From a virus: a stretch of DNA of 38,085 bases. Shown here in pieces: positions 29,371 through 38,085 of this stretch. The notes below the pieces were generated by a model that was given only the letters and a program-made list of their open reading frames with translations, made no database searches and was not told where the DNA came from. A program made the position numbers and the translations under genes. The number at the start of each line of letters is the position of its first letter. Positions within the stretch are counted from its first letter, which is position 1. The stretch lies in UHGV virus genome UHGV-0010575; one strand, written 5' to 3'.

Positions 29371-30747
29371 ATGGCTACTTGGCAAGGATCAAATGGCGGA
29401 TTGTTGGCTGGTATCGGCGGCGTCAACTCAAACGCTCCGAGCGTAAATGACATCGGCAATACGCTTCAGCTTATCAGGCAGAACAATGATATTGAGCGTT
29501 CAGGCGCTAACAATGTTGGGCTGACTGCTTTGCAAGGCCTTTCAGGTATTGCGGGGGTGTTTCAGCAGGAAAAGCAGGCTCAGCGGCAGAAAGAATTTCA
29601 GCAGGCGTACGCTAATGCTTATGCGTCTGGTGATCGCGGTGCTTTGCGTCAGTTGGCTACTCAATATCCAGACCAGATTGAATCCGTTCGTAAAGGCATG
29701 GGATTCATTGATGAAGACCAGCGTAATTCTATCGGCACCTTAGCGGCTGGCGCACGCCTTGCGTCATCGTCTCCAGAAGCAATGCAATCATGGCTGCAAA
29801 ACAACGCCAAGGAACTGACTCGCGTCGGTGTTGATCCTAATAACGTTGCTCAGATGTATCAGCAGAATCCTTCAGGATTTGGTGAGTTTGTTGATCACCT
29901 TGGAATGTCAGCGCTTGGTCCTAATGATTATTTCAATGTTCAGGACAAGATGGCTGGTCGTGAGATTGACCGAGGCAGGCTGGCAGAGACAATCCGCAGC
30001 AATCAGGCTGGCGAGGCACTTCAGGCGAGAGGGCAAAACCTTTCCTATCAGTCAGCAATGACTGGACACGGACTTGCAGCAGAAAGACTGGCACTTGATA
30101 AGCAGAAATTCGGTTTTGAAGTACAACAGGCACAAAAGAAGGCCGATGAACTTATTAATGCTGCGCCAAAACTATCCGTGAACATGGAAAAGGCTATAGA
30201 AAAATCAGCAGGTGATGCGGCAGCTAGTCGTAATGCTGCCGATTCAATGACAACGCTTGCTGACACGCTTGAGAAGGAGAAGCCAACTCCTGGTTTGTTC
30301 GGTAACGCTGAAAATATGTTCACTAAGCTTACGGGGCAAGATAACTACCTCCGAGATATGCGGATTAGATTCAACCAACTAGCCAATGCGCAGGCAACAA
30401 AGCTTCTCCCTCCCGGCCCTGCATCAGATAAGGATATTGAGTTTGCAAGGAAAGGCATTCCAAGCGAAACGGATAATCCAATGGTCATGGCTCGATGGTT
30501 AAGGGGTATGGCAAAAATGGAAAGTAATAACGCGAAGTTCAACGAGTTTAGGTCAGAGTGGATGAGTGCAAATGGCAGCCCAGGACAATCTGATCGCAAC
30601 CGAAACATCATGGGGATGGATGTTAAGAAGGGTGAATCATTGAACTCTGCGGCAAAACGTTTTCTTTCCTCAAGTTATGGCGATAGCCAACCTCAACAGC
30701 AATTGTCCGATGACGAATTAATTAGCAAATATCTCGGAGGGCAGTAA
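29371..30747 (+). CDS. Ejection protein (P22 gp20-like)
   Basis: 458 aa; synteny and size. Confidence 0.65.
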
Positions 30748-32858
30748 TGGCCTATAGTCGTGAACAGTTGATGACGGCGTTAAGGAATGCTGATGCTGCC
30801 GGCGATACTGAGGGAGCACGTCGCATTGCTCAGATGCTGTCTTCTGGTGATCAATCCACTCAAAACCAATCGCAGCCAGAAGAACAATCTCTGGTGGGAA
30901 AAGCTACTGACTGGCTCACTGGTGGTCAAAGTGCAGGGCAAATTGCAGAACAGGCTGGTCGTGGTCTGGTAAACATACCATTTGACGTATTGCAGGGTGG
31001 CGCAAGTCTGATTAATGCAATCAGTCAGGGGCTTGGTGGCCCCAAGGTTTTGGATGATGTTTATCGCCCTGTCGATCGACCGACAGACCCTTACGCGCAA
31101 GCCGGTGAAACAATTGGTGGGTATCTCCTGCCAATTGGCACAGCGGCAAAAGCTGCTGGAGCGCCAGCAAAGCTCGCTGAAGATATCGGTTCCGCAGGAA
31201 ACATGATTGCAGGTTCTCTTGCTGATGCTGCAAATCAGGAGGGTGATTTTGCACAAAATGCTGCCATTAACGGTGGTATCAATATTGGTGCTCAAGGCGT
31301 TCTTTCAGGTGTCGGGCGCGTTATTGCGCCAAGGGTTTCACAGGCTCTTGGTGGTGCAGCACTGAATTCTGCTAATGATGTTTCCAGGATGGCAAAGTCA
31401 GGTGCTGGGCGTCAGTCAATTGCCAGTCAGGCCGCTAATGTGTCCGAAGATGTAGCAAAAGCGGCTGAGTCTGCTGGAATTGATATAAACGCATTAACAC
31501 CAGGAATGCGATCTGGAAGTCGTGGAATTGCACAAGCCGAAGGCGCATTGGCATCAACACCAGGAATTGTTCAGGACGCCCATCAGGCAGCATTTAACGA
31601 AATATCATCAAAGTTAAGTCGAAACCTTGATGAATTTGGGGCCGCATCTGGAACGGCATCAGAAAAAAGTGCGGCTATAAAACAAAGGATTCTTCAAAAT
31701 CTTGATCAGATGAAGGATGCCGAGCGCGCGGCATGGGATGACGTGCGGTCAACAATGCCAAATCAAAAAGCAAGAATGCTAAATGGTAATGCCGTTATTC
31801 AGGCAGAGCGATCTGCTGGCATACCGCTTACTCCTGAAATGAAACAGTTTGTTCAGGCAAACAATCAAGGTGGAGTAACATTTGATGGCATGAAAGCATG
31901 GAGAGCGAAATTTGCTGATGCGGAGCAAAAATATAAGCGTAGCGGAGAGGCAAATGCGGCAAGGAGAGCAGGGGAAATACGTCGGGCAATTACTGATGAT
32001 ATGCGCACAATGGCGGAAAACGGCGGATTTTTTGATGACTGGCAAAAAGCTAATGATCTGTCTAAAGCGAGGTTATCAGCACAAGAGAGTGCAGAGTCTG
32101 TTTTCGGGCGTGATTTGGCAACAGATGCACTGATTACGAATGGAGTAAAATCCCTTCAATCATCGTCAGCTAAAGGTCTTAATGGTCCTGCTGGATTCCA
32201 TTCTATGATCCGCGCGCTGCCAGAATCAGAGCGTGTTCCTGCTATATCATCAATGTTGCAGGATGCTATCTCGCATGGTGTACGTGGTGGCAAATCTGAT
32301 GCAGCAGGAATTAACCATATCGCAGAGATACTCACGCCACAAAATGTAAAAGCCATTAGCCGATATTCCTCAGAGCTTGGAAGAATTGCTGATGCATATG
32401 GCACTCTTGCAAGAGCAGCAGTGAAACCTCAGCAGTATATTGAAAGAACAGGGCGAACTGCCAATGTACTACGTGATCTGGATGCCGGTTTATCCAACGT
32501 CACATCAACAGTGTTAAATGCAATTGCCAATTCAACATCAGGTGCCATTGTTGGTGGGGCAGGAGGGGGCATTGCAGGCGCTGCCGCAGGTGCTTTAGTT
32601 GGCGCCGGGCTAAAAGGTGCTGTATCTAAAATTGCCACCACACGTAGTGGTCGGTATGCGATAGAGAAAGCAGTTCAGGAAGCCACGAAAGCAGTAAGAG
32701 CTGGCGGAAGTAAAGAAGCATTAGCGGCGGCGGAACGCAGATTTATGGCAAATAAAGCCGCCGTAAAAGCAATACGCGATGCAGTTGGAAACGAAGAGTT
32801 CAATCGCTTAGCGAGGGCTGGCATTGTAGCGTCGCTAAGCGGAATGGCACAGGAGTAA
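30747..32858 (+). CDS. Ejection protein (P22 gp16-like)
   Basis: 703 aa, Ala/Gly-rich; synteny. Confidence 0.65.
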
Positions 32859-33182
32859 TTAATCATCCATGGATGGATTGAGCTTATCACGTGTTGATGT
32901 GGCGATTTGTCCTACATTCCTAAGCCAAGATTTCAAATCCTTGATATTGTCATTGATTTCATGAATATCTTCTTTTTTTAATCTGTTAATATTATTCTCA
33001 ATAATTTCAATGGATTGCTCAATATCAGATATAGTGAATGATAGTTTGTTCTTCTCATCTTTTATTGAGTTTTTAAGTGCTTCGTTCTCAGTCTTGAGGT
33101 CAGATATCTTTTGTTTTAAAGATGCCAGTTGGTACTGAACCACAATGAGTGCGATAGCTATCGCGATAACTGTTGTATACAC
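32859..33182 (-). CDS. Unrecognised small membrane-anchored coiled-coil protein (107 aa)
   Basis: ORF in track; N-terminal TM (YTTVIAIAIALIVVQY) then heptad-rich region; AT-rich. Confidence 0.5.
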   Translation of the reverse strand: MYTTVIAIAIALIVVQYQLASLKQKISDLKTENEALKNSIKDEKNKLSFTISDIEQSIEIIENNINRLKKEDIHEINDNIKDLKSWLRNVGQIATSTRDKLNPSMDD

Positions 33183-33204
33183 ACCAACCTCCTTAGTTGA
33201 TATT

Positions 33205-33624
33205 TTATTTGTATGAAATCAACGAGTTAAGCTCCCTCTCATTTAGAGATTGGAATCTTTTTTCAGTTATATCAATGATGGCTGGCAATAGTTTTTTTAC
33301 CTTCTCATGACCATCAGGTTTAATGATAGCAATGATCTGGATATGAATTGGATATGTGTTGTGTACCGCAAATATCAAAAAGTTATCGCTAACTCTACGA
33401 TGTATTGGCGTTGTTCTTAACCAAGGATCATCTACTCCAGGGATCCTGATGTGCGACTTGTAAATTCCCGATAAGACGGCGTGATGGTTTCTCTCAAACC
33501 CACCAATCTTACCAAGATAAGCTGAAACGGTGCCTCTGTTTTTGTAGTTTGCAAGAGCCTTCGCAAAGTATTGTTCTAATGGTCCAGCCGCTGCATCTAC
33601 AACAATGCTTATGCGGTTTTCCAT
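33205..33624 (-). CDS. Unrecognised protein (139 aa); weak resemblance to YafO-type toxins
   Basis: ORF in track; C-terminal IAIIKPDGHEK... segment resembles YafO ILKPEPH region (recall, low confidence). Confidence 0.45.
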   Translation of the reverse strand: MENRISIVVDAAAGPLEQYFAKALANYKNRGTVSAYLGKIGGFERNHHAVLSGIYKSHIRIPGVDDPWLRTTPIHRRVSDNFLIFAVHNTYPIHIQIIAIIKPDGHEKVKKLLPAIIDITEKRFQSLNERELNSLISYK

Positions 33625-34208
33625 TTTGGTGCTTCCATGCCAAATCTTTTATGTGAATCTTCAACTGATTTCTTGAAGGAAGCCAACTCTTCTTCAGTGA
33701 ACTCTTCAGGTTCAGCATATGATAGTGGTATGTGCTGCATTGCTAGCGTCACAAGCCCCATTGTTAGCCTTTTGTATTCTATAAAAGTATTGATTGAGTG
33801 GTTTTTCATTGTTGTAAGAGTTGACATATGGGGCTTCCACGCATCGCTGTTCTCAGCGATGAAGAAGGTATACAACAGTTTCGCGATACCATAATCAAGC
33901 TTAGATATCTGATCGTTCAACATATCTACATCGTCATGTTGAATATCAAGTGAGGAAATATCTTCTTCTGTACCATTACTTAATATGTCAATGAATGTAA
34001 TGTACTTTTTGCAAACTTCCTCTACAGGTGACATAACGCAGTAGATCTTGCTAAGAGCTTCAGAAGCCTGTTTTTTAGACAAAGAGCCGCTATGACTGCG
34101 ATCAAAGTCTGAAATTGAACGCTCGATAGATGTTGATATGTCAGAAAAAACGTTTTCAATTTTTCCTGGCTCTTGATTCAGGATGGCCATAACGCCTATC
34201 TCAATCAC
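33609..34208 (-). CDS. Unrecognised acidic protein (199 aa)
   Basis: ORF in track; GTG start (alternative ATG at 34190); overlaps downstream gene by 16 nt. Confidence 0.45.
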   Translation of the reverse strand: MIEIGVMAILNQEPGKIENVFSDISTSIERSISDFDRSHSGSLSKKQASEALSKIYCVMSPVEEVCKKYITFIDILSNGTEEDISSLDIQHDDVDMLNDQISKLDYGIAKLLYTFFIAENSDAWKPHMSTLTTMKNHSINTFIEYKRLTMGLVTLAMQHIPLSYAEPEEFTEEELASFKKSVEDSHKRFGMEAPKWKTA

Positions 34209-34250
34209 AATGTATACCTTGTTATTTTATATCAACGAACAAACATTGAC

Positions 34251-34499
34251 CTATCTGGTCTCGTACATTTTTTTCAGGGTTTCAAACACCATCTTCTTAA
34301 CAATTTCTGCTTGCTGATCAGCCATGCGTTCTGCTTCGTCACGGTAACCTGCAATCGGTGATGGTTTTGATAGCGCATCCTGAACGATTTGTAATAACTC
34401 AGAGTTCATTGACCTTCCGTTAGCCTCGGCTCTTAATTTCAATTTTTCTCTTACTTCCAAAGGCATACGGAAGTTAAAGTGCGGATCATCTCTAGCCAT
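34251..34499 (-). CDS. mnt: Mnt repressor (ribbon-helix-helix)
   Basis: MARDDPHFNFRMPLEVREKLKLRAEANGRSMNSELLQIVQDALSKPS... closely matches recalled P22 Mnt. Confidence 0.7.
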   Translation of the reverse strand: MARDDPHFNFRMPLEVREKLKLRAEANGRSMNSELLQIVQDALSKPSPIAGYRDEAERMADQQAEIVKKMVFETLKKMYETR

Positions 34500-34522
34500 G
34501 CCATCACTCCAAGTTAGTATCT

Positions 34523-34786
34523 CTAACTTTCGTCTTTATTGTTGCCATACATGCATTTCAACTTCTCAACATCATGTTCAAGATCTATCAATCGTGATGC
34601 TATAGTTGCAAGGTCTAGTGCTTGAATGTGTTTATTTTTTTCGGTCCATGCTTCAAGTGCAGCGACCATCTCAGCATTTAATGAACGAGAATTAGCCTCA
34701 GCCAGTTCAATAAGACGTTCCTTTATCTCTACAGGAAGCCTCAGATTCACTTGAGGGTTTTTGTACTTACGATCAGACATCGGCAC
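34523..34786 (-). CDS. Second ribbon-helix-helix (Arc/Mnt-family) protein (87 aa)
   Basis: PQVNLRLPVEIKERLIELAEANSRSLNAEMVAAL RHH signature. Confidence 0.55.
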   Translation of the reverse strand: MPMSDRKYKNPQVNLRLPVEIKERLIELAEANSRSLNAEMVAALEAWTEKNKHIQALDLATIASRLIDLEHDVEKLKCMYGNNKDES

Positions 34787-34885
34787 ACCCTGAATAATTT
34801 TTTACCACAGGATATGTAGGTGTCTATTGACTATCAATGCGTACCTAAATACTATGTATGCGTACCACATACAGCGGAGGATGCA
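34787..34885. promoter_or_regulatory. Divergent immI control region (candidate Pmnt/Pant and operators)
   Basis: Intergenic region between divergent RHH genes; inverted repeats ATTGA-cta-TCAAT and TGTATG-N7-CATACA, direct repeat TGCGTACC x2. Confidence 0.45.
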
Positions 34886-35026
34886 ATGAAGGTAAAAACA
34901 CTGCGTATGCCAGAGAAGTTAGAAAAAATCCTTGAAGAGAAAGCAAAGGAAGAGTGTCGATCGTTTAGCGCAGAAGTAATTAAACGGGTGCTGGACAGCT
35001 TGAAGAGAGAGGGGGTGATGGTATGA
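34886..35026 (+). CDS. arc: Arc-like repressor (ribbon-helix-helix, 46 aa)
   Basis: Internal ATG with GGAGG SD; RHH pattern KTLRMPEKLEKILEEKAKEECRSFSAEVIKRVL. Confidence 0.6.
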   Translation: MKVKTLRMPEKLEKILEEKAKEECRSFSAEVIKRVLDSLKREGVMV

Positions 35027-35226
35027 GTAAAGAATGTTGTTTCTGCGGCATTAGCGAATCAGACACTGATCAAACATACATTTACTCTAAAGAAACAGGT
35101 CGGATGCTGTGTAGTGACTGCGTGTTGGACATCATAAGATACAAGCATCTTGGATGTTCTGCCAGCATTAGCAATATAGGTGAAGTATACGAAGGGAAAG
35201 ATATAACTGATAGAGCAGAAAGTTGA
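35023..35226 (+). CDS. Small Cys-rich (zinc-ribbon-like) protein (67 aa)
   Basis: ATGA overlap with arc stop; CxxC...CxxC pattern (CCFCG ... CSDC). Confidence 0.4.
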
Positions 35227-35288
35227 AGCCCCAACTGCGGGAACAGTCAGGGCTTCGGTATCAACAAAACTTACGAGGTATTATTGAT

Positions 35289-36179
35289 ATGTCAAGCTTA
35301 GCAAAGTCAGCTGTAAATTGCACTAATAGCATCATCATTTCTGACGTCAAGATTCATATGGATTCAGAGGGTCGTTACTCGCTTAATGACCTTCATGTAG
35401 CGTCTGGAAAGGAGGAAAAACATCAGCCAGCTTTCTTCATGCGTAGAAATGAAACTATTGAATTGATTAATGAAATTTTTAATTCTGCGGATATGCAGAA
35501 TAAGAATCCCGTCATTTCTAAGAAAGGTAGATATGGTGGAACATACGTGTGCAAGGAGCTTGTTTACTCCTACGCCATGTGGATTAGCGCAGCATTTGCG
35601 CTGAAGGTTATCCGCGCATATGACGCAATGGTTACTGCCACACAAGAGAGGAAGGCTATTGGCGGTAAAACTTCAGTAGCTGAACGCACGCCGCTACGCG
35701 ATGCAGTAAACATGCTGGTAGGAAAGAAAGGACTTCGCTATGACGATGCATACAATATGGTTCATCAGCGTTTTGGTATTGACAGCATTGATGAACTTTC
35801 AATTGAACAAATCCCGCTGGCCGTAGAGTACATCCACAGGGTAGTGCTTGAAGGTGAGTTCATTGGCAAACAAGAGAAGAAAACCAACGAGCTTTCTGCA
35901 AAAGAAGCAAACAGCCTTGTATGGTTATGGGATTATGCCAACCGCTCACAGGCATTATTCCGCGAATTGTATCCGGCATTAAAACAAATTCAATCGAACT
36001 ATTCCGGCAGATGCTACGACTATGGTCATGAGTTCTCGTATGTTATCGGAATGGCGAGAGACGTTTTAATAAACCACACACGAGATATTGATATTAATGA
36101 GCCAGACGGACCAACGAATCTTTCCGCATGGATGAGACTTAAGAATAAAGAATTACCTCCTTCAATACATAACTACTGA
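35289..36179 (+). CDS. ant: Antirepressor (KilA-N domain N-terminus)
   Basis: Position downstream of arc; KilA-N-like N-terminal region; start at internal ATG of track ORF. Confidence 0.6.
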
Positions 36180-36197
36180 CAGATAACCAACGCAACG

Positions 36198-36222
36198 ACC
36201 CAGCTTAGGCTGGGTTTTTTTA
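36198..36222 (+). terminator. Rho-independent terminator (ACCCAGC-UUAG-GCUGGGU + U7)
   Basis: Perfect 7-bp stem and long T-run between ant and tailspike. Confidence 0.7.
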
Positions 36223-36279
36223 TGCCCAAAATTCACCGTAGCCATGCTGCGGCGATTCCTTGTATCTGGAGCAAATTAA

Positions 36280-38085
36280 ATGACAGACATTATACCTAAC
36301 ATTATAGTTTCCATGCCTAATCAATTGTTCACAATGTCAAGAACATTTAAATCAGTATCGAATGGAAGCATTTATATCGGGAAGCCTGATACCGATCCGA
36401 CTAATCCAGATAATCAAGTGGATGTTTATTTTGAGAATGAGAATGGAAAATATATTAAGGTTTCTCAACCAATAAAAATAAGTCAAGCTGGACAACCTGT
36501 ATTGAATGGTCAATTCGGTAAGTTTGCGACTATAAAAAATCACTCAATGGCGATTTTTGATGCGTATGGCTCTCAGCAGCACTATTTCCCAAATGTAATG
36601 AAATATGCTCCAGATCAGTTAAGGCAGGAATTAACAAATTTTTCTGGTGAAAATTCTCCTGGTTATGCTGACCCAAGTAATACGGTATGGGGAATTGATG
36701 CATTTTCTTCTAATGAATATGCGAAAAATAATGCTTTTTTCGGAGTTGGAGCAGGATCATCAATTATAGGTAACGAGTCAGATGAGGCTGTTGGTGCGGA
36801 AAATACTGGTATTGGTAGACGAGCCGGTGCAAGCCTTACAACAGGACAGCGCAATGTTCTACTTGGACATGAGGCTGGAGCACTGTTAACTACAGGTAGT
36901 TGTAATATTTTTATTTACGCTCAAAGTTCTTCTTATGCCAACTATAAAACCGGTAGTTATAATGTAGTGGTTGGTTATAACGCTGGCAAACTATTAACAT
37001 CAGGAGAGAGAAATGTTTCAGTTGGTACGGATGCTGGGTCACGAACAACAACAGGAAGAGATAACGTTGCTGTCGGTCAAGCAGCAATGCAAAATAACTC
37101 AACTGGTGGTGGTAATACCTATATAGGAGCATTCTCTGGTGCTGAGACGGGAACTGGCGGTAATAATCTTGCTGCAGGTCGCTCTGCCTTATTTAGAAAT
37201 GTGGATGGTTCTGGAAACGTTGCACTAGGACGTGAGGCTTCTCTTGGTTTGTCTTCATATGGGGAATCTCCCAATAATATTGTTGCTATAGGGTATCAAG
37301 CTGCATGGTCACAGAATGGATTAAATGGTGTTGTTTTTTGTGGGATGCAAGCAGGATATAAAGCAACAAAAATGAATGATTCAGTTCTTATTGGTAGGGC
37401 TTCCGGCTTTAATTTAACAACAGGAAGTGATAATGTTTTTGTTGGTGCAGCGTCAGGAGATAGTGAGACTACTGGAACCCAATTAGTATATCTTGGACAT
37501 CAAGCTGGTAGGTTTTTGATTGATGGGACACCTGCAAAAGAGAAATTAAATTGTGTAGCTTTAGGCTGCCGTGCCAGAGTTGGTGGAGATCATGAGATTC
37601 AGTTAGGAAATTCTTCTCAGACAGTTTATGTATATGGTACGGTGCAAACTCGGTCTGATGAGCGTGATAAAGCAGATAAACGAATAATAGACGGAGAACT
37701 TGCTGTATCATTCGTCCGTGGAATAATCCCATATTTTTATAAGTGGGATTTTCGTGATGATTATATAGAAGAATACAATGTAAAAATTGGTGATGATTCT
37801 AATGGCAATCCGATTTTTGAAACTAGAATTCATCAACATGAAAAAGATGGCAGTAGAAAAAGGAAAAGAGAACATGCCGGGTATCTTGCACAGCAAGTTA
37901 AAGAATTACTTGATCGACTTGGAATTGACTGTGGTATATATCAAGATCATCTAGTAAACAATGGATGCGATGTAAAAACAATTGCCTACGAACAGGTTAT
38001 ACCGTTTGTTACAAAGGCTATAGATGTTGCATTTTCAAGGATAGAGGGGTTAGAGCAAAGATTGAACAAACTCGAAAACCTATAA
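36280..38085 (+). CDS. Tailspike: P22-type head-binding N-domain + repeat-rich receptor domain + C-terminal intramolecular-chaperone (S74-like) domain
   Basis: N-terminus MTDIIPNIIVSMPNQLFTMSRTFKSVSNGSIYIGKPDTDPTNP matches P22 gp9 head-binding domain; central xTTG repeats; C-terminal SDERDK...coiled coil typical of autoprocessing chaperone domains; AT-rich. Confidence 0.8.
   Translation: MTDIIPNIIVSMPNQLFTMSRTFKSVSNGSIYIGKPDTDPTNPDNQVDVYFENENGKYIKVSQPIKISQAGQPVLNGQFGKFATIKNHSMAIFDAYGSQQHYFPNVMKYAPDQLRQELTNFSGENSPGYADPSNTVWGIDAFSSNEYAKNNAFFGVGAGSSIIGNESDEAVGAENTGIGRRAGASLTTGQRNVLLGHEAGALLTTGSCNIFIYAQSSSYANYKTGSYNVVVGYNAGKLLTSGERNVSVGTDAGSRTTTGRDNVAVGQAAMQNNSTGGGNTYIGAFSGAETGTGGNNLAAGRSALFRNVDGSGNVALGREASLGLSSYGESPNNIVAIGYQAAWSQNGLNGVVFCGMQAGYKATKMNDSVLIGRASGFNLTTGSDNVFVGAASGDSETTGTQLVYLGHQAGRFLIDGTPAKEKLNCVALGCRARVGGDHEIQLGNSSQTVYVYGTVQTRSDERDKADKRIIDGELAVSFVRGIIPYFYKWDFRDDYIEEYNVKIGDDSNGNPIFETRIHQHEKDGSRKRKREHAGYLAQQVKELLDRLGIDCGIYQDHLVNNGCDVKTIAYEQVIPFVTKAIDVAFSRIEGLEQRLNKLENL

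Follow-up and report, generated by a model that had tools for sequence, protein, structure and literature searches.

The 38,085-nucleotide (nt) virus genome UHGV-0010575, referred to below as the window, carries on its minus strand, at bases 33205-34208, two overlapping genes that probably constitute a bicistronic type II toxin-antitoxin cassette whose expression takes place in the lysogen and whose antitoxin belongs to a new family; the probability of this reading is put at roughly 0.72. By sequence comparison, the 139-amino-acid (aa) product of the downstream gene is a divergent, phage-borne member of the known YafO toxin family, already flagged as such by RefSeq, while the 199-aa product of the upstream gene is a candidate antitoxin belonging to an undescribed, uncatalogued helical family. 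The pair is mobile and its two genes are obligately associated, the 139-aa protein is a member of a toxin family, the C-terminal tail of the 199-aa protein co-varies with the partner, both genes are under purifying selection, and their products are complementary in charge. Judged from its genomic features, the pair qualifies as a type II toxin-antitoxin module. The genes concerned, together with the neighbouring gene hkcB, are as follows:

33609-34208, minus strand: 199-aa candidate antitoxin (phrog_18235)
33205-33624, minus strand: 139-aa YafO-family toxin candidate (Pfam PF13957, phrog_1651)
33609-33624, minus strand: 16-nt overlap of the two genes, with probable translational coupling; the identical overlap is present in the Salmonella, Pectobacterium and Xenorhabdus copies
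32859-33182, minus strand: hkcB, 107 aa (phrog_5962, E 1e-58)

A preliminary description of this DNA had placed three minus-strand open reading frames (ORFs), of 107, 139 and 199 aa, between ejection gene 16 and the repressor gene mnt (34251-34499, minus strand). It had noted that all three are co-oriented with mnt, that the 199-aa and 139-aa genes share a 16-nt overlap, and that the 199-aa protein is acidic; each of these statements is reproduced, down to the exact coordinates. The suggestion of a toxin-based module in the slot where P22 carries sieA, co-oriented with mnt, probably expressed in the lysogen and with the 199-aa gene as the candidate neutraliser, is likewise supported. What does not hold is the view of the three genes as a single cluster, since hkcB and the 199+139 pair are inherited independently.

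The 139-aa protein matches the Pfam YafO_toxin model PF13957 with 43.6 bits against a cut-off of 25 (E 3.2e-11), and the alignment places its residues 26-122 on positions 2-98 of the 101 in the model. The resemblance had previously been described as weak and C-terminal, and none of the three proteins had been assigned to a recognised family. Both statements require revision: the match is significant and nearly full length, and in UTI89 and 43 other E. coli the protein is named 'type II toxin-antitoxin system YafO family toxin' by PGAP and RefSeq. Comparison with K-12 YafO gives an hhalign E-value of 4e-5 over 84 columns, and the two proteins have in common H58, P67, R77, D80, L83, I98, P103 and H106. 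Five of these positions, H58, R77, D80, P103 and H106, do not vary between K-12 YafO, the window protein and the relatives of the latter; the literature found gives no established catalytic roles for them. YafO itself was reportedly described by Zhang, Yamaguchi and Inouye in 2009 as a ribosome-associated mRNA interferase. The same activity is assigned to it by literature cited in a review that counts YafO among 13 BECR-fold RelE/ParE toxin families, with about 1,000 members, mRNA degradation as the activity, and a gene order of antitoxin followed by toxin (PMC11980606).

The 199-aa protein has no Pfam or NCBIfam match and no PDB relative detectable by sequence, and it is unrelated to YafN, the partner of YafO in K-12 (hhalign probability 0.13; no match to Pfam PhdYeFM). 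Its relatives are few. Among 5.8 billion proteins, a word-indexed search returned 16 clusters and a profile search 25, and 22 relatives, ten of them with E <= 1e-30, emerged when 1.84 billion representatives were searched exhaustively with an HMMER profile; phage CUS-3 is the sole encoder of the protein among 50,697 phage records. The AlphaFold 2 (AF2) model is all-helical, with a predicted local distance difference test score (pLDDT) of 80 and a predicted template modelling score (pTM) of 0.67. Long helices at residues 45-78, 91-119 and 125-159 (pLDDT about 90) are followed by an acidic linker at 160-171, which is disordered, and by a helix at the C-terminus (172-188); Foldseek found no informative match to this fold in PDB or BFVD. 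Across an 18-sequence alignment, the invariant residues are E29, R30, F35, D36, R37, S38, S42, A51 and Y113, followed by F116, A118, W124, P126, H127, L131, L155, S181 and W196.

The two products of the pair are oppositely charged, the 199-aa protein having a pI of 4.9 and a net charge of -12, and the 139-aa protein a pI of 9.65 and a net charge of +6. Purifying selection acts on all three genes: synonymous sites are saturated, and the ratio of nonsynonymous to synonymous substitution rates (dN/dS) is about 0.09-0.25 where computable. The 199-aa gene evolves faster than the 139-aa gene, with a dN of 0.21 versus 0.155 between the window and Salmonella, and of 0.51 versus 0.31 between the window and Xenorhabdus.

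How the two proteins might recognise one another is indicated by a second subfamily of the 199-aa protein (27-40% identity, about 206 aa), which occurs in Yersinia, Serratia and metagenomic phages. The partner in this subfamily is a 125-130-aa protein that lacks a Pfam match and belongs to phrog_5954, the toxin candidate of the window being phrog_1651. The 139-aa family and the 125-130-aa partners are not detectably related (hhalign probability 0.1% between profiles that are clean but shallow, such that a shared fold may exist). An hhalign probability of 99% linking the two partner families proved to be an artefact, as the alignment, A2, contained a member of the other family. Sequence searches of the PDB with the 139-aa protein, the 199-aa protein and the group-2 partner profile gave noise only, and no YafO structure was found there by such a search.

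Between the two subfamilies, the identity of the upstream proteins is 44% over residues 1-44, 28% over the helical bundle and 16% over the last 40 or so residues, whereas within each subfamily the tail is conserved (67% and 48%). The YafO-paired proteins have a tail that ends ...SFKKxVxDSHK(R/K)xGMExPxW, and the phrog_5954-paired proteins one that ends ...PDWVKSGDDFVxWIQS.... Two remote relatives, P0043 (E 8e-8) and P0045 (E 1.5e-5), are devoid of the motif ERSxSDFDRSH (E29, R30, F35, D36, R37, S38 and H39 in the window protein) and yet retain a ...SHKxxxLxxPxW ending, and YafO partners were therefore predicted for both. Each is indeed followed by a PF13957 gene (loci L027; L028/L029), and the YafO_toxin products encoded beside them are 41-43% identical to the toxin candidate of the window. 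The motif is also missing from the remote relatives P0048 and P0049. This successful prediction provides the strongest in-silico evidence that the C-terminal tail recognises the toxin, and that the 199-aa protein is the cognate partner of the 139-aa protein.

The phrog_5954 family carries a strongly conserved signature, LPGRNKPSTGVSK...HYH.G...FGDWTS...HYQN, and several of its copies are missing from public gene calls. Because it is always paired with the roughly 206-aa relatives of the 199-aa protein, the phrog_5954 protein is a candidate for a new toxin family. Its genes lie at the following loci:

L014, 4621-4998
L017, 4621-5001
L018, 4614-5000
L008, 2065-2457
L023, 3621-4001
L024, 3681-4064

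By sequence, the window is a close relative of phage CUS-3, a P22-like E. coli prophage: over bases 32700-34600, it agrees at 99.7% identity with Enterobacteria phage CUS-3 (CP000711) and with prophages of UTI89, IHE3034, NU14, APEC O18 and further E. coli strains. Its gene order is P22-like, in that ejection genes 20 and 16 (plus strand) are followed by the "ant moron" and the tailspike gene. The name was given by Casjens and colleagues to the region between the ejection genes and the tailspike, which is a region of rapid gene flux (PMC2629481).

In every context inspected, the gene for a protein of about 190-227 aa has directly behind it a small gene that overlaps or abuts it. The contexts covered are E. 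coli CUS-3, UTI89 and STEC383, Salmonella, four Pectobacterium, three Xenorhabdus, three Yersinia, seven Serratia and five metagenomic loci. In the four Pectobacterium genomes, the 199+139 pair stands on its own, flanked by an ABC-transporter operon on one side and by gcvP on the other, and its surroundings contain no phage genes. Xenorhabdus carries the pair at two different chromosomal sites, which are 82% identical in DNA over a stretch that opens exactly 156 nt ahead of the first gene and closes 1 nt beyond the stop codon of the second, and the borders of the cassette are thereby defined. In a Salmonella P22-like prophage (L009), mnt is followed by the 199-aa gene and then by the 139-aa gene, which lies directly against gene 16 without hkcB; the mnt-199-139 block is homologous as a unit between this prophage and positions 34500-33251 of the window (70.5% DNA identity). 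In E. coli STEC383 (L030, 2274-4457), the same block is 99.4% identical and four unrelated genes replace hkcB. One STEC383 moron gene encodes a P63C-domain protein, a further sign of flux at the gene-16 side of the ant moron.

Among 5426 complete E. coli genomes, 44 (0.8%) contain the pair, in each case with both genes full length, in single copy and on the chromosome, and a distant blastn search of 72,556 plasmids gave no match. The sites that it occupies are of phage ant-moron, rexAB-like, nin-region, integrative-island and plain chromosomal types. From these comparisons, the 199+139 pair is a discrete mobile cassette, of which hkcB is not part.

Where the pair is carried by a prophage, it tends to be found behind a repressor gene. 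The signals surrounding it in the window are the following:

34251-34499, minus strand: mnt, with Arc and Repressor_Mnt domains (Pfam Arc E 1e-27, Repressor_Mnt E 2.5e-15), 42 nt upstream of the pair
34523-34786, minus strand: second Mnt/Arc-family gene, the first of the leftward operon (Pfam Arc E 3.4e-10, phrog_795)
34797-34855, both strands: divergent promoter-like sites, sigma-70-like, at the Pmnt/Pant position
34217-34234, minus strand: conserved AT-rich box TGaTATAAAATaacAAGG, a -10-like element plus Shine-Dalgarno sequence, upstream of the 199-aa gene
32805-32841, minus strand: perfect 10-nt inverted repeat with a 17-nt loop, within gene 16 at its 3' end and immediately beyond the stop codon of hkcB, with no clear T-run

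The cassette is probably made in the lysogen within the leftward mnt operon, because it begins 42 nt behind mnt with no terminator between; a scan of the minus strand from mnt to hkcB found no terminator-like site. The annotation of epsilon34 places Pmnt/Pant and arcO at the position equivalent to that of the divergent promoter-like sites. Behind Mnt-type repressors of P22-like phages and siphophages, and with a similar gap of about 42-45 nt, the pair is found in the window, in Salmonella L009, in STEC383, and in L008 and L018. In lambdoid prophages of Yersinia (L014-16) and Serratia (L017, L021-23) and in L027, it lies behind CI-type repressors, which combine a helix-turn-helix (HTH) domain with an S24 peptidase, or behind HTH repressors, in the position that rexAB occupies in lambda. 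A nin region (L028) and an integrase/AlpA island (L024-26) each harbour it in one instance.

An internal promoter had also been proposed at 34209-34250. A conserved -10-like box does lie there: the element at 34217-34234 (TGaTATAAAAT) is common to the Salmonella and Xenorhabdus copies, and similar boxes are present in the Pectobacterium and metagenomic copies. Yet a consensus promoter scan does not flag the box, so that its status as a promoter is unproven, and transcription starting at that point would have almost no leader; an internal promoter near 34217-34234 may thus exist but is not established. For the Pectobacterium and Xenorhabdus copies, upstream -35/-10 pairs chosen by hand fit at only 8 of 12 positions and the scan does not call them, and for these reasons no promoter is claimed for those copies. 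The inverted repeat at 32805-32841 might, speculatively, mark the end of the leftward transcript, or it may be a recombination or regulatory site.

Under the toxin-antitoxin reading, the 139-aa YafO-type toxin (RelE/ParE, BECR superfamily) would cut mRNA and thereby shut down translation, and the acidic 199-aa protein would hold the basic toxin inactive through its C-terminal tail. The last 40 or so residues, that is, the acidic linker together with the C-terminal helix ending ...SHK(R/K)xGxxxPxW, would bind and block the toxin, while the N-terminal region and the helical bundle would serve a family-wide function in regulation, sensing or oligomerisation. Both proteins would be supplied in the lysogen by the leftward mnt operon, and late phage transcription would run antisense across the cassette. 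The toxin would be freed once the supply of antitoxin ceased, whether because a superinfecting phage shut off the host or because the prophage was lost, and abortive infection and/or prophage addiction would follow. Neutralisation by the 199-aa protein has indirect support from the complementary charges, from the disordered acidic linker with its adjoining C-terminal helix, and from the co-variation of tail and partner with the prediction that it allowed. Such a scheme presupposes that the two proteins bind physically and that binding neutralises the toxin, that the antitoxin is labile, that the toxin is an RNase, and that the pair is expressed in the lysogen, all of which, together with a biological or defensive role, we infer.

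Several points weigh against this reading. The 139-aa protein is only about 21% identical to K-12 YafO and fails the NCBIfam YafO equivalog NF007377 (13.9 bits against a cut-off of 153), so that its membership of YafO holds at the family level only. Its AF2 model, built on 7 close sequences, failed (pLDDT 43.5), and the Pfam hidden Markov model is for this reason the sole basis of the BECR fold assignment. The 199-aa protein, for its part, is large for an antitoxin. A DNA-binding domain is found in most type II antitoxins, although it is not universal; in the 199-aa protein, neither Pfam nor NCBIfam detects one (HTH, ribbon-helix-helix, AbrB or Phd), and AF2 gives long helices only. The most conserved feature of the protein is the motif ERSxSDFDRSH, which remains unexplained, since it does not change between subfamilies whose partners differ, falls in a low-confidence part of the model, and is missing from the remote YafO-paired relatives. 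Among the defence systems of PADLOC-DB v2, the 139-aa protein has no match, HkcB gives coiled-coil noise only, and the relatives give none; the 199-aa protein gives nothing beyond PtuB at E 0.005 over 60 residues. Neither a promoter nor a terminator of the pair is established. Finally, Arc represses Pmnt during lytic growth in the immI region of P22, and if it does so here, the phage would risk activating its own toxin in lytic growth.

The conservation of a core above an exchangeable tail gives room for other readings of the 199-aa protein. It is possible, if doubtful, that this protein founds a phage-associated, modular 'adaptor' family, in which the ERSxSDFDRSH/WxPH core senses a signal or is enzymatic and the exchangeable tail restrains toxins of the YafO type or of phrog_5954; the result would be a lysogeny-coupled abortive-infection switch, lodged in the repressor operons (mnt, cI) and in the sieA/rexAB slots of Enterobacterales prophages. 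Rather unlikely is a two-gene anti-phage system in which the 199-aa protein acts as the primary sensor or regulator, or as an enzyme, with ERSxSDFDRSH and WxPH recognising a cue or modifying an effector, and with effectors that are interchangeable on the C-terminal tail. Such a system would be consistent with the pairing of one upstream family with two partner families between which no relationship is detectable and which fall into different PHROGs, with the invariant polar cluster (E, R, D, R, S, H, W, P, H) conserved above the toxin-specific tail, and with the consistent placement in rexAB/sieA-type lysogen slots, which are typical of prophage defence genes. However, P0043 and P0045 pair with YafO toxins despite lacking ERSxSDFDRSH, and the motif is therefore not needed for pairing; moreover, the 199-aa protein matches no enzyme or sensor by fold or by family, and the region of the motif is of low confidence in the model.

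Type II toxin-antitoxin cassettes are classic addiction elements, and the pair could accordingly be a selfish or decayed addiction module without benefit to its carrier, kept because its loss kills or because it hitch-hikes with mnt. The isolated insertions in the Pectobacterium and Xenorhabdus chromosomes agree with this, as does the rarity of the cassette in complete E. coli genomes, within an ant moron that is itself in rapid flux (PMC2629481). An explanation of this kind is nevertheless improbable, given the strong purifying selection on both genes across genera and their intact state in all 44 of the 44 genomes. The pair has also been placed repeatedly and independently behind the repressors of unrelated phage types, which suggests selection for lysogenic expression.

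A toxin-antitoxin cassette of two genes leaves hkcB to be accounted for, and the comparisons indicate that it is a separate moron gene, adjacent to the pair by chance in the CUS-3 type. Its 107-aa product matches phrog_5962 over residues 1-107 and is 98% identical to epsilon34 gp14 (gene 14) and 56% identical to HK620 HkcB. Homologues occur only in the P22-like phages CUS-3, epsilon34, SEN22, HK620 and 611R6, where they always abut gene 16. Similarity to the DNA of epsilon34 and HK620 sets in precisely at the ribosome-binding site of hkcB, a position that marks a recombination joint; in the CUS-3 type, the toxin gene replaces the usual region upstream of hkcB. The proposal that all three genes form one three-component exclusion or defence system, with HkcB as sensor or effector, could draw on their common orientation, on the 22-nt gap from the toxin stop codon to the hkcB start with no terminator-like site between, and on the presence of the whole three-gene block in 42 E. 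coli genomes, yet it is very improbable and is largely refuted by distribution, the pair occurring without hkcB in Salmonella L009, STEC383, Pectobacterium, Xenorhabdus, Yersinia and Serratia, hkcB occurring without the pair in HK620, epsilon34, SEN22 and 611R6, and the recombination joint falling exactly at the hkcB ribosome-binding site.

The account of HkcB as a membrane-anchored coiled coil is upheld. A single N-terminal hydrophobic segment, the only one among the three proteins, has a Kyte-Doolittle value of 2.14 over residues 4-20, and the heptad periodicity is significant, being reached by 3 of 1000 shuffles. From its position and its membrane anchor, a role for HkcB in exclusion is conceivable. 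An identity as an Rz-like i-spanin was rejected, as the matches reach just E 0.002-0.004, are due to the transmembrane segment and the coiled coil, and concern a gene that does not lie beside lysis genes; weak SMC-like matches were set aside as coiled-coil noise. In epsilon34, the same slot holds a further 139-aa gene, gene 15 (L002, 3102-3521), which is on the opposite strand and unrelated to the toxin (weak PEGA match only).

Comparison with characterised systems places the toxin-antitoxin cassette in context. With yafN-yafO of the K-12 dinB operon, it has in common the toxin family PF13957, a close antitoxin-then-toxin order, the combination of a basic toxin with an acidic partner, and the H, R, D, P and H positions of the toxin. 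The two differ in that YafN is a 97-aa Phd/YefM-type protein, whereas the 199-aa partner is unrelated to it, twice as long and all-helical, and in that yafN-yafO belongs to the SOS dinB operon, whereas the pair described here is phage-borne behind mnt. In the survey of Leplae et al. (2011), the genes next to those of YafO toxins were always of the Phd type or unclassified, and phages and plasmids had yielded no YafO toxins at that time (PMC3141249). No study of the genes described here came up in literature searches with protein accessions, with locus tags or with CUS-3 plus toxin-antitoxin.

The slot occupied by the pair is, as the preliminary description had it, syntenic with that of P22 sieA, P22 having sieA and orf59a between gene 16 and mnt. 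The position between gene 16 and mnt, the orientation and the expected expression from the prophage are the same in both (PMC10883804, PMC2629481). SieA, however, is a multi-pass inner-membrane block to DNA injection, whereas here there are two soluble proteins and the single-anchor HkcB; homology to SieA, which had been considered as an outcome that would overturn the proposal, was not found for any of the three proteins (BLASTP E >= 0.2). With lambda rexAB and with BstA of the BTP1 type, the likeness is one of position only, downstream of and co-oriented with repressors. There is no sequence relation, and the translation arrest by an RNase proposed here differs from the membrane depolarisation of Rex and from abortive infection of the BstA type. 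A closer parallel in organisation is offered by Panacea/PanA and NetFlax (PMC10440598), in which one upstream family has at least two unrelated-looking partners and a partner-specific region co-varies with them. Here too there are differences, since the 199-aa protein is not homologous to PanA (DUF4065) or to any Pfam antitoxin domain, two partner types are seen, and the 199-aa family is tiny (22 representatives) and, judging by those sources that are named, limited to Enterobacterales. For hkcB, finally, the genes hkcB of HK620 and 14 of epsilon34 are clear orthologues, in the same position abutting gene 16.

The three-gene region had been noted as more AT-rich than the virion genes flanking it. 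This is correct for the DNA to its left, the G+C content (GC) of the region being 37.6% as compared with 47.4% for bases 1-32858, and the region is the lowest-GC stretch of 1350 bp in the window (0.4th percentile). The DNA to its right is AT-rich too (immI 41.7% and tailspike 38.6% GC), which qualifies the contrast. At third codon positions, GC in the three genes is 0.34-0.39, not below that of gene 16 (0.33) or of the tailspike gene (0.22); part of the contrast is therefore an amino-acid effect, arising from the Ala/Gly-rich ejection proteins.

To the right of the cassette, the window has a complete immI region, which comprises two Mnt/Arc-family genes, an Arc-like ORF, the sar RNA and an antirepressor with KilA-N and P22_AR_C domains. 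The two Mnt/Arc-family genes are in tandem, and the second has an Arc domain only and a different C-terminus; P22 and epsilon34 have a single mnt. The Arc-like ORF lies at 34886-35026 (plus strand), inside the ORF 34820-35026 (Pfam Arc E 7.5e-8), and corresponds in RefSeq to a 46-aa Arc-family protein in UTI89; the 2008 epsilon34 paper describes arc as apparently missing from CUS-3-type ant morons. Between arc and ant, at 35023-35226 (plus strand), there is a Cys-rich ORF of 67 aa (CxxC...CxxC, phrog_7150), which falls within the annotated 'boundary sequence' of CUS-3. The sar antisense RNA, at 35221-35287 (minus strand), matches Rfam RF00262 with 69.7 bits against a gathering score of 43; as in P22, it overlaps the beginning of the gene for the antirepressor.

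From 35223 to 38085 (plus strand), the antirepressor and the tailspike are unlike those of CUS-3. The tailspike of the window has 601 aa and combines a P22-type head-binding domain with a chaperone domain of the Peptidase_S74 family, while that of CUS-3 is a 981-aa endosialidase. Because the antirepressor and the tailspike differ, the window is not CUS-3 itself, and, given the different tailspike, the phage is probably a CUS-3 relative with a receptor specificity other than that of CUS-3. On the other side of the cassette, gp16 (30747-32858, plus strand) is 98% identical to CUS-3 gp16 and 74.5% identical to HK620 gp16 (L019, 2780-4948) over 671 residues; the latter value conflicts with the report that CUS-3 and HK620 gp16 are just 26% identical (PMC10883804). 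The notion of a conserved DNA block joining the C-terminus of gene 16 to that of hkcB was dropped, the window and HK620 gp16 proteins being 74.5% identical throughout.

If the toxin-antitoxin reading is correct, the locus would represent a phage-borne YafO subfamily that is served by a different, uncatalogued antitoxin family. The partner-specific tail would provide a simple rule of toxin recognition, under which a swap of tails should swap specificity, and the second subfamily flags in phrog_5954 a second uncharacterised candidate toxin family. The cassette is present in CUS-3-type prophages of K1 strains, of extraintestinal pathogenic E. coli (ExPEC) and of avian pathogenic E. coli (APEC), for example UTI89, IHE3034 and RS218. 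Its position in lysogen-expressed sieA/rexAB slots, together with this carriage, therefore makes it a candidate for prophage defence or stabilisation in clinically relevant lineages.

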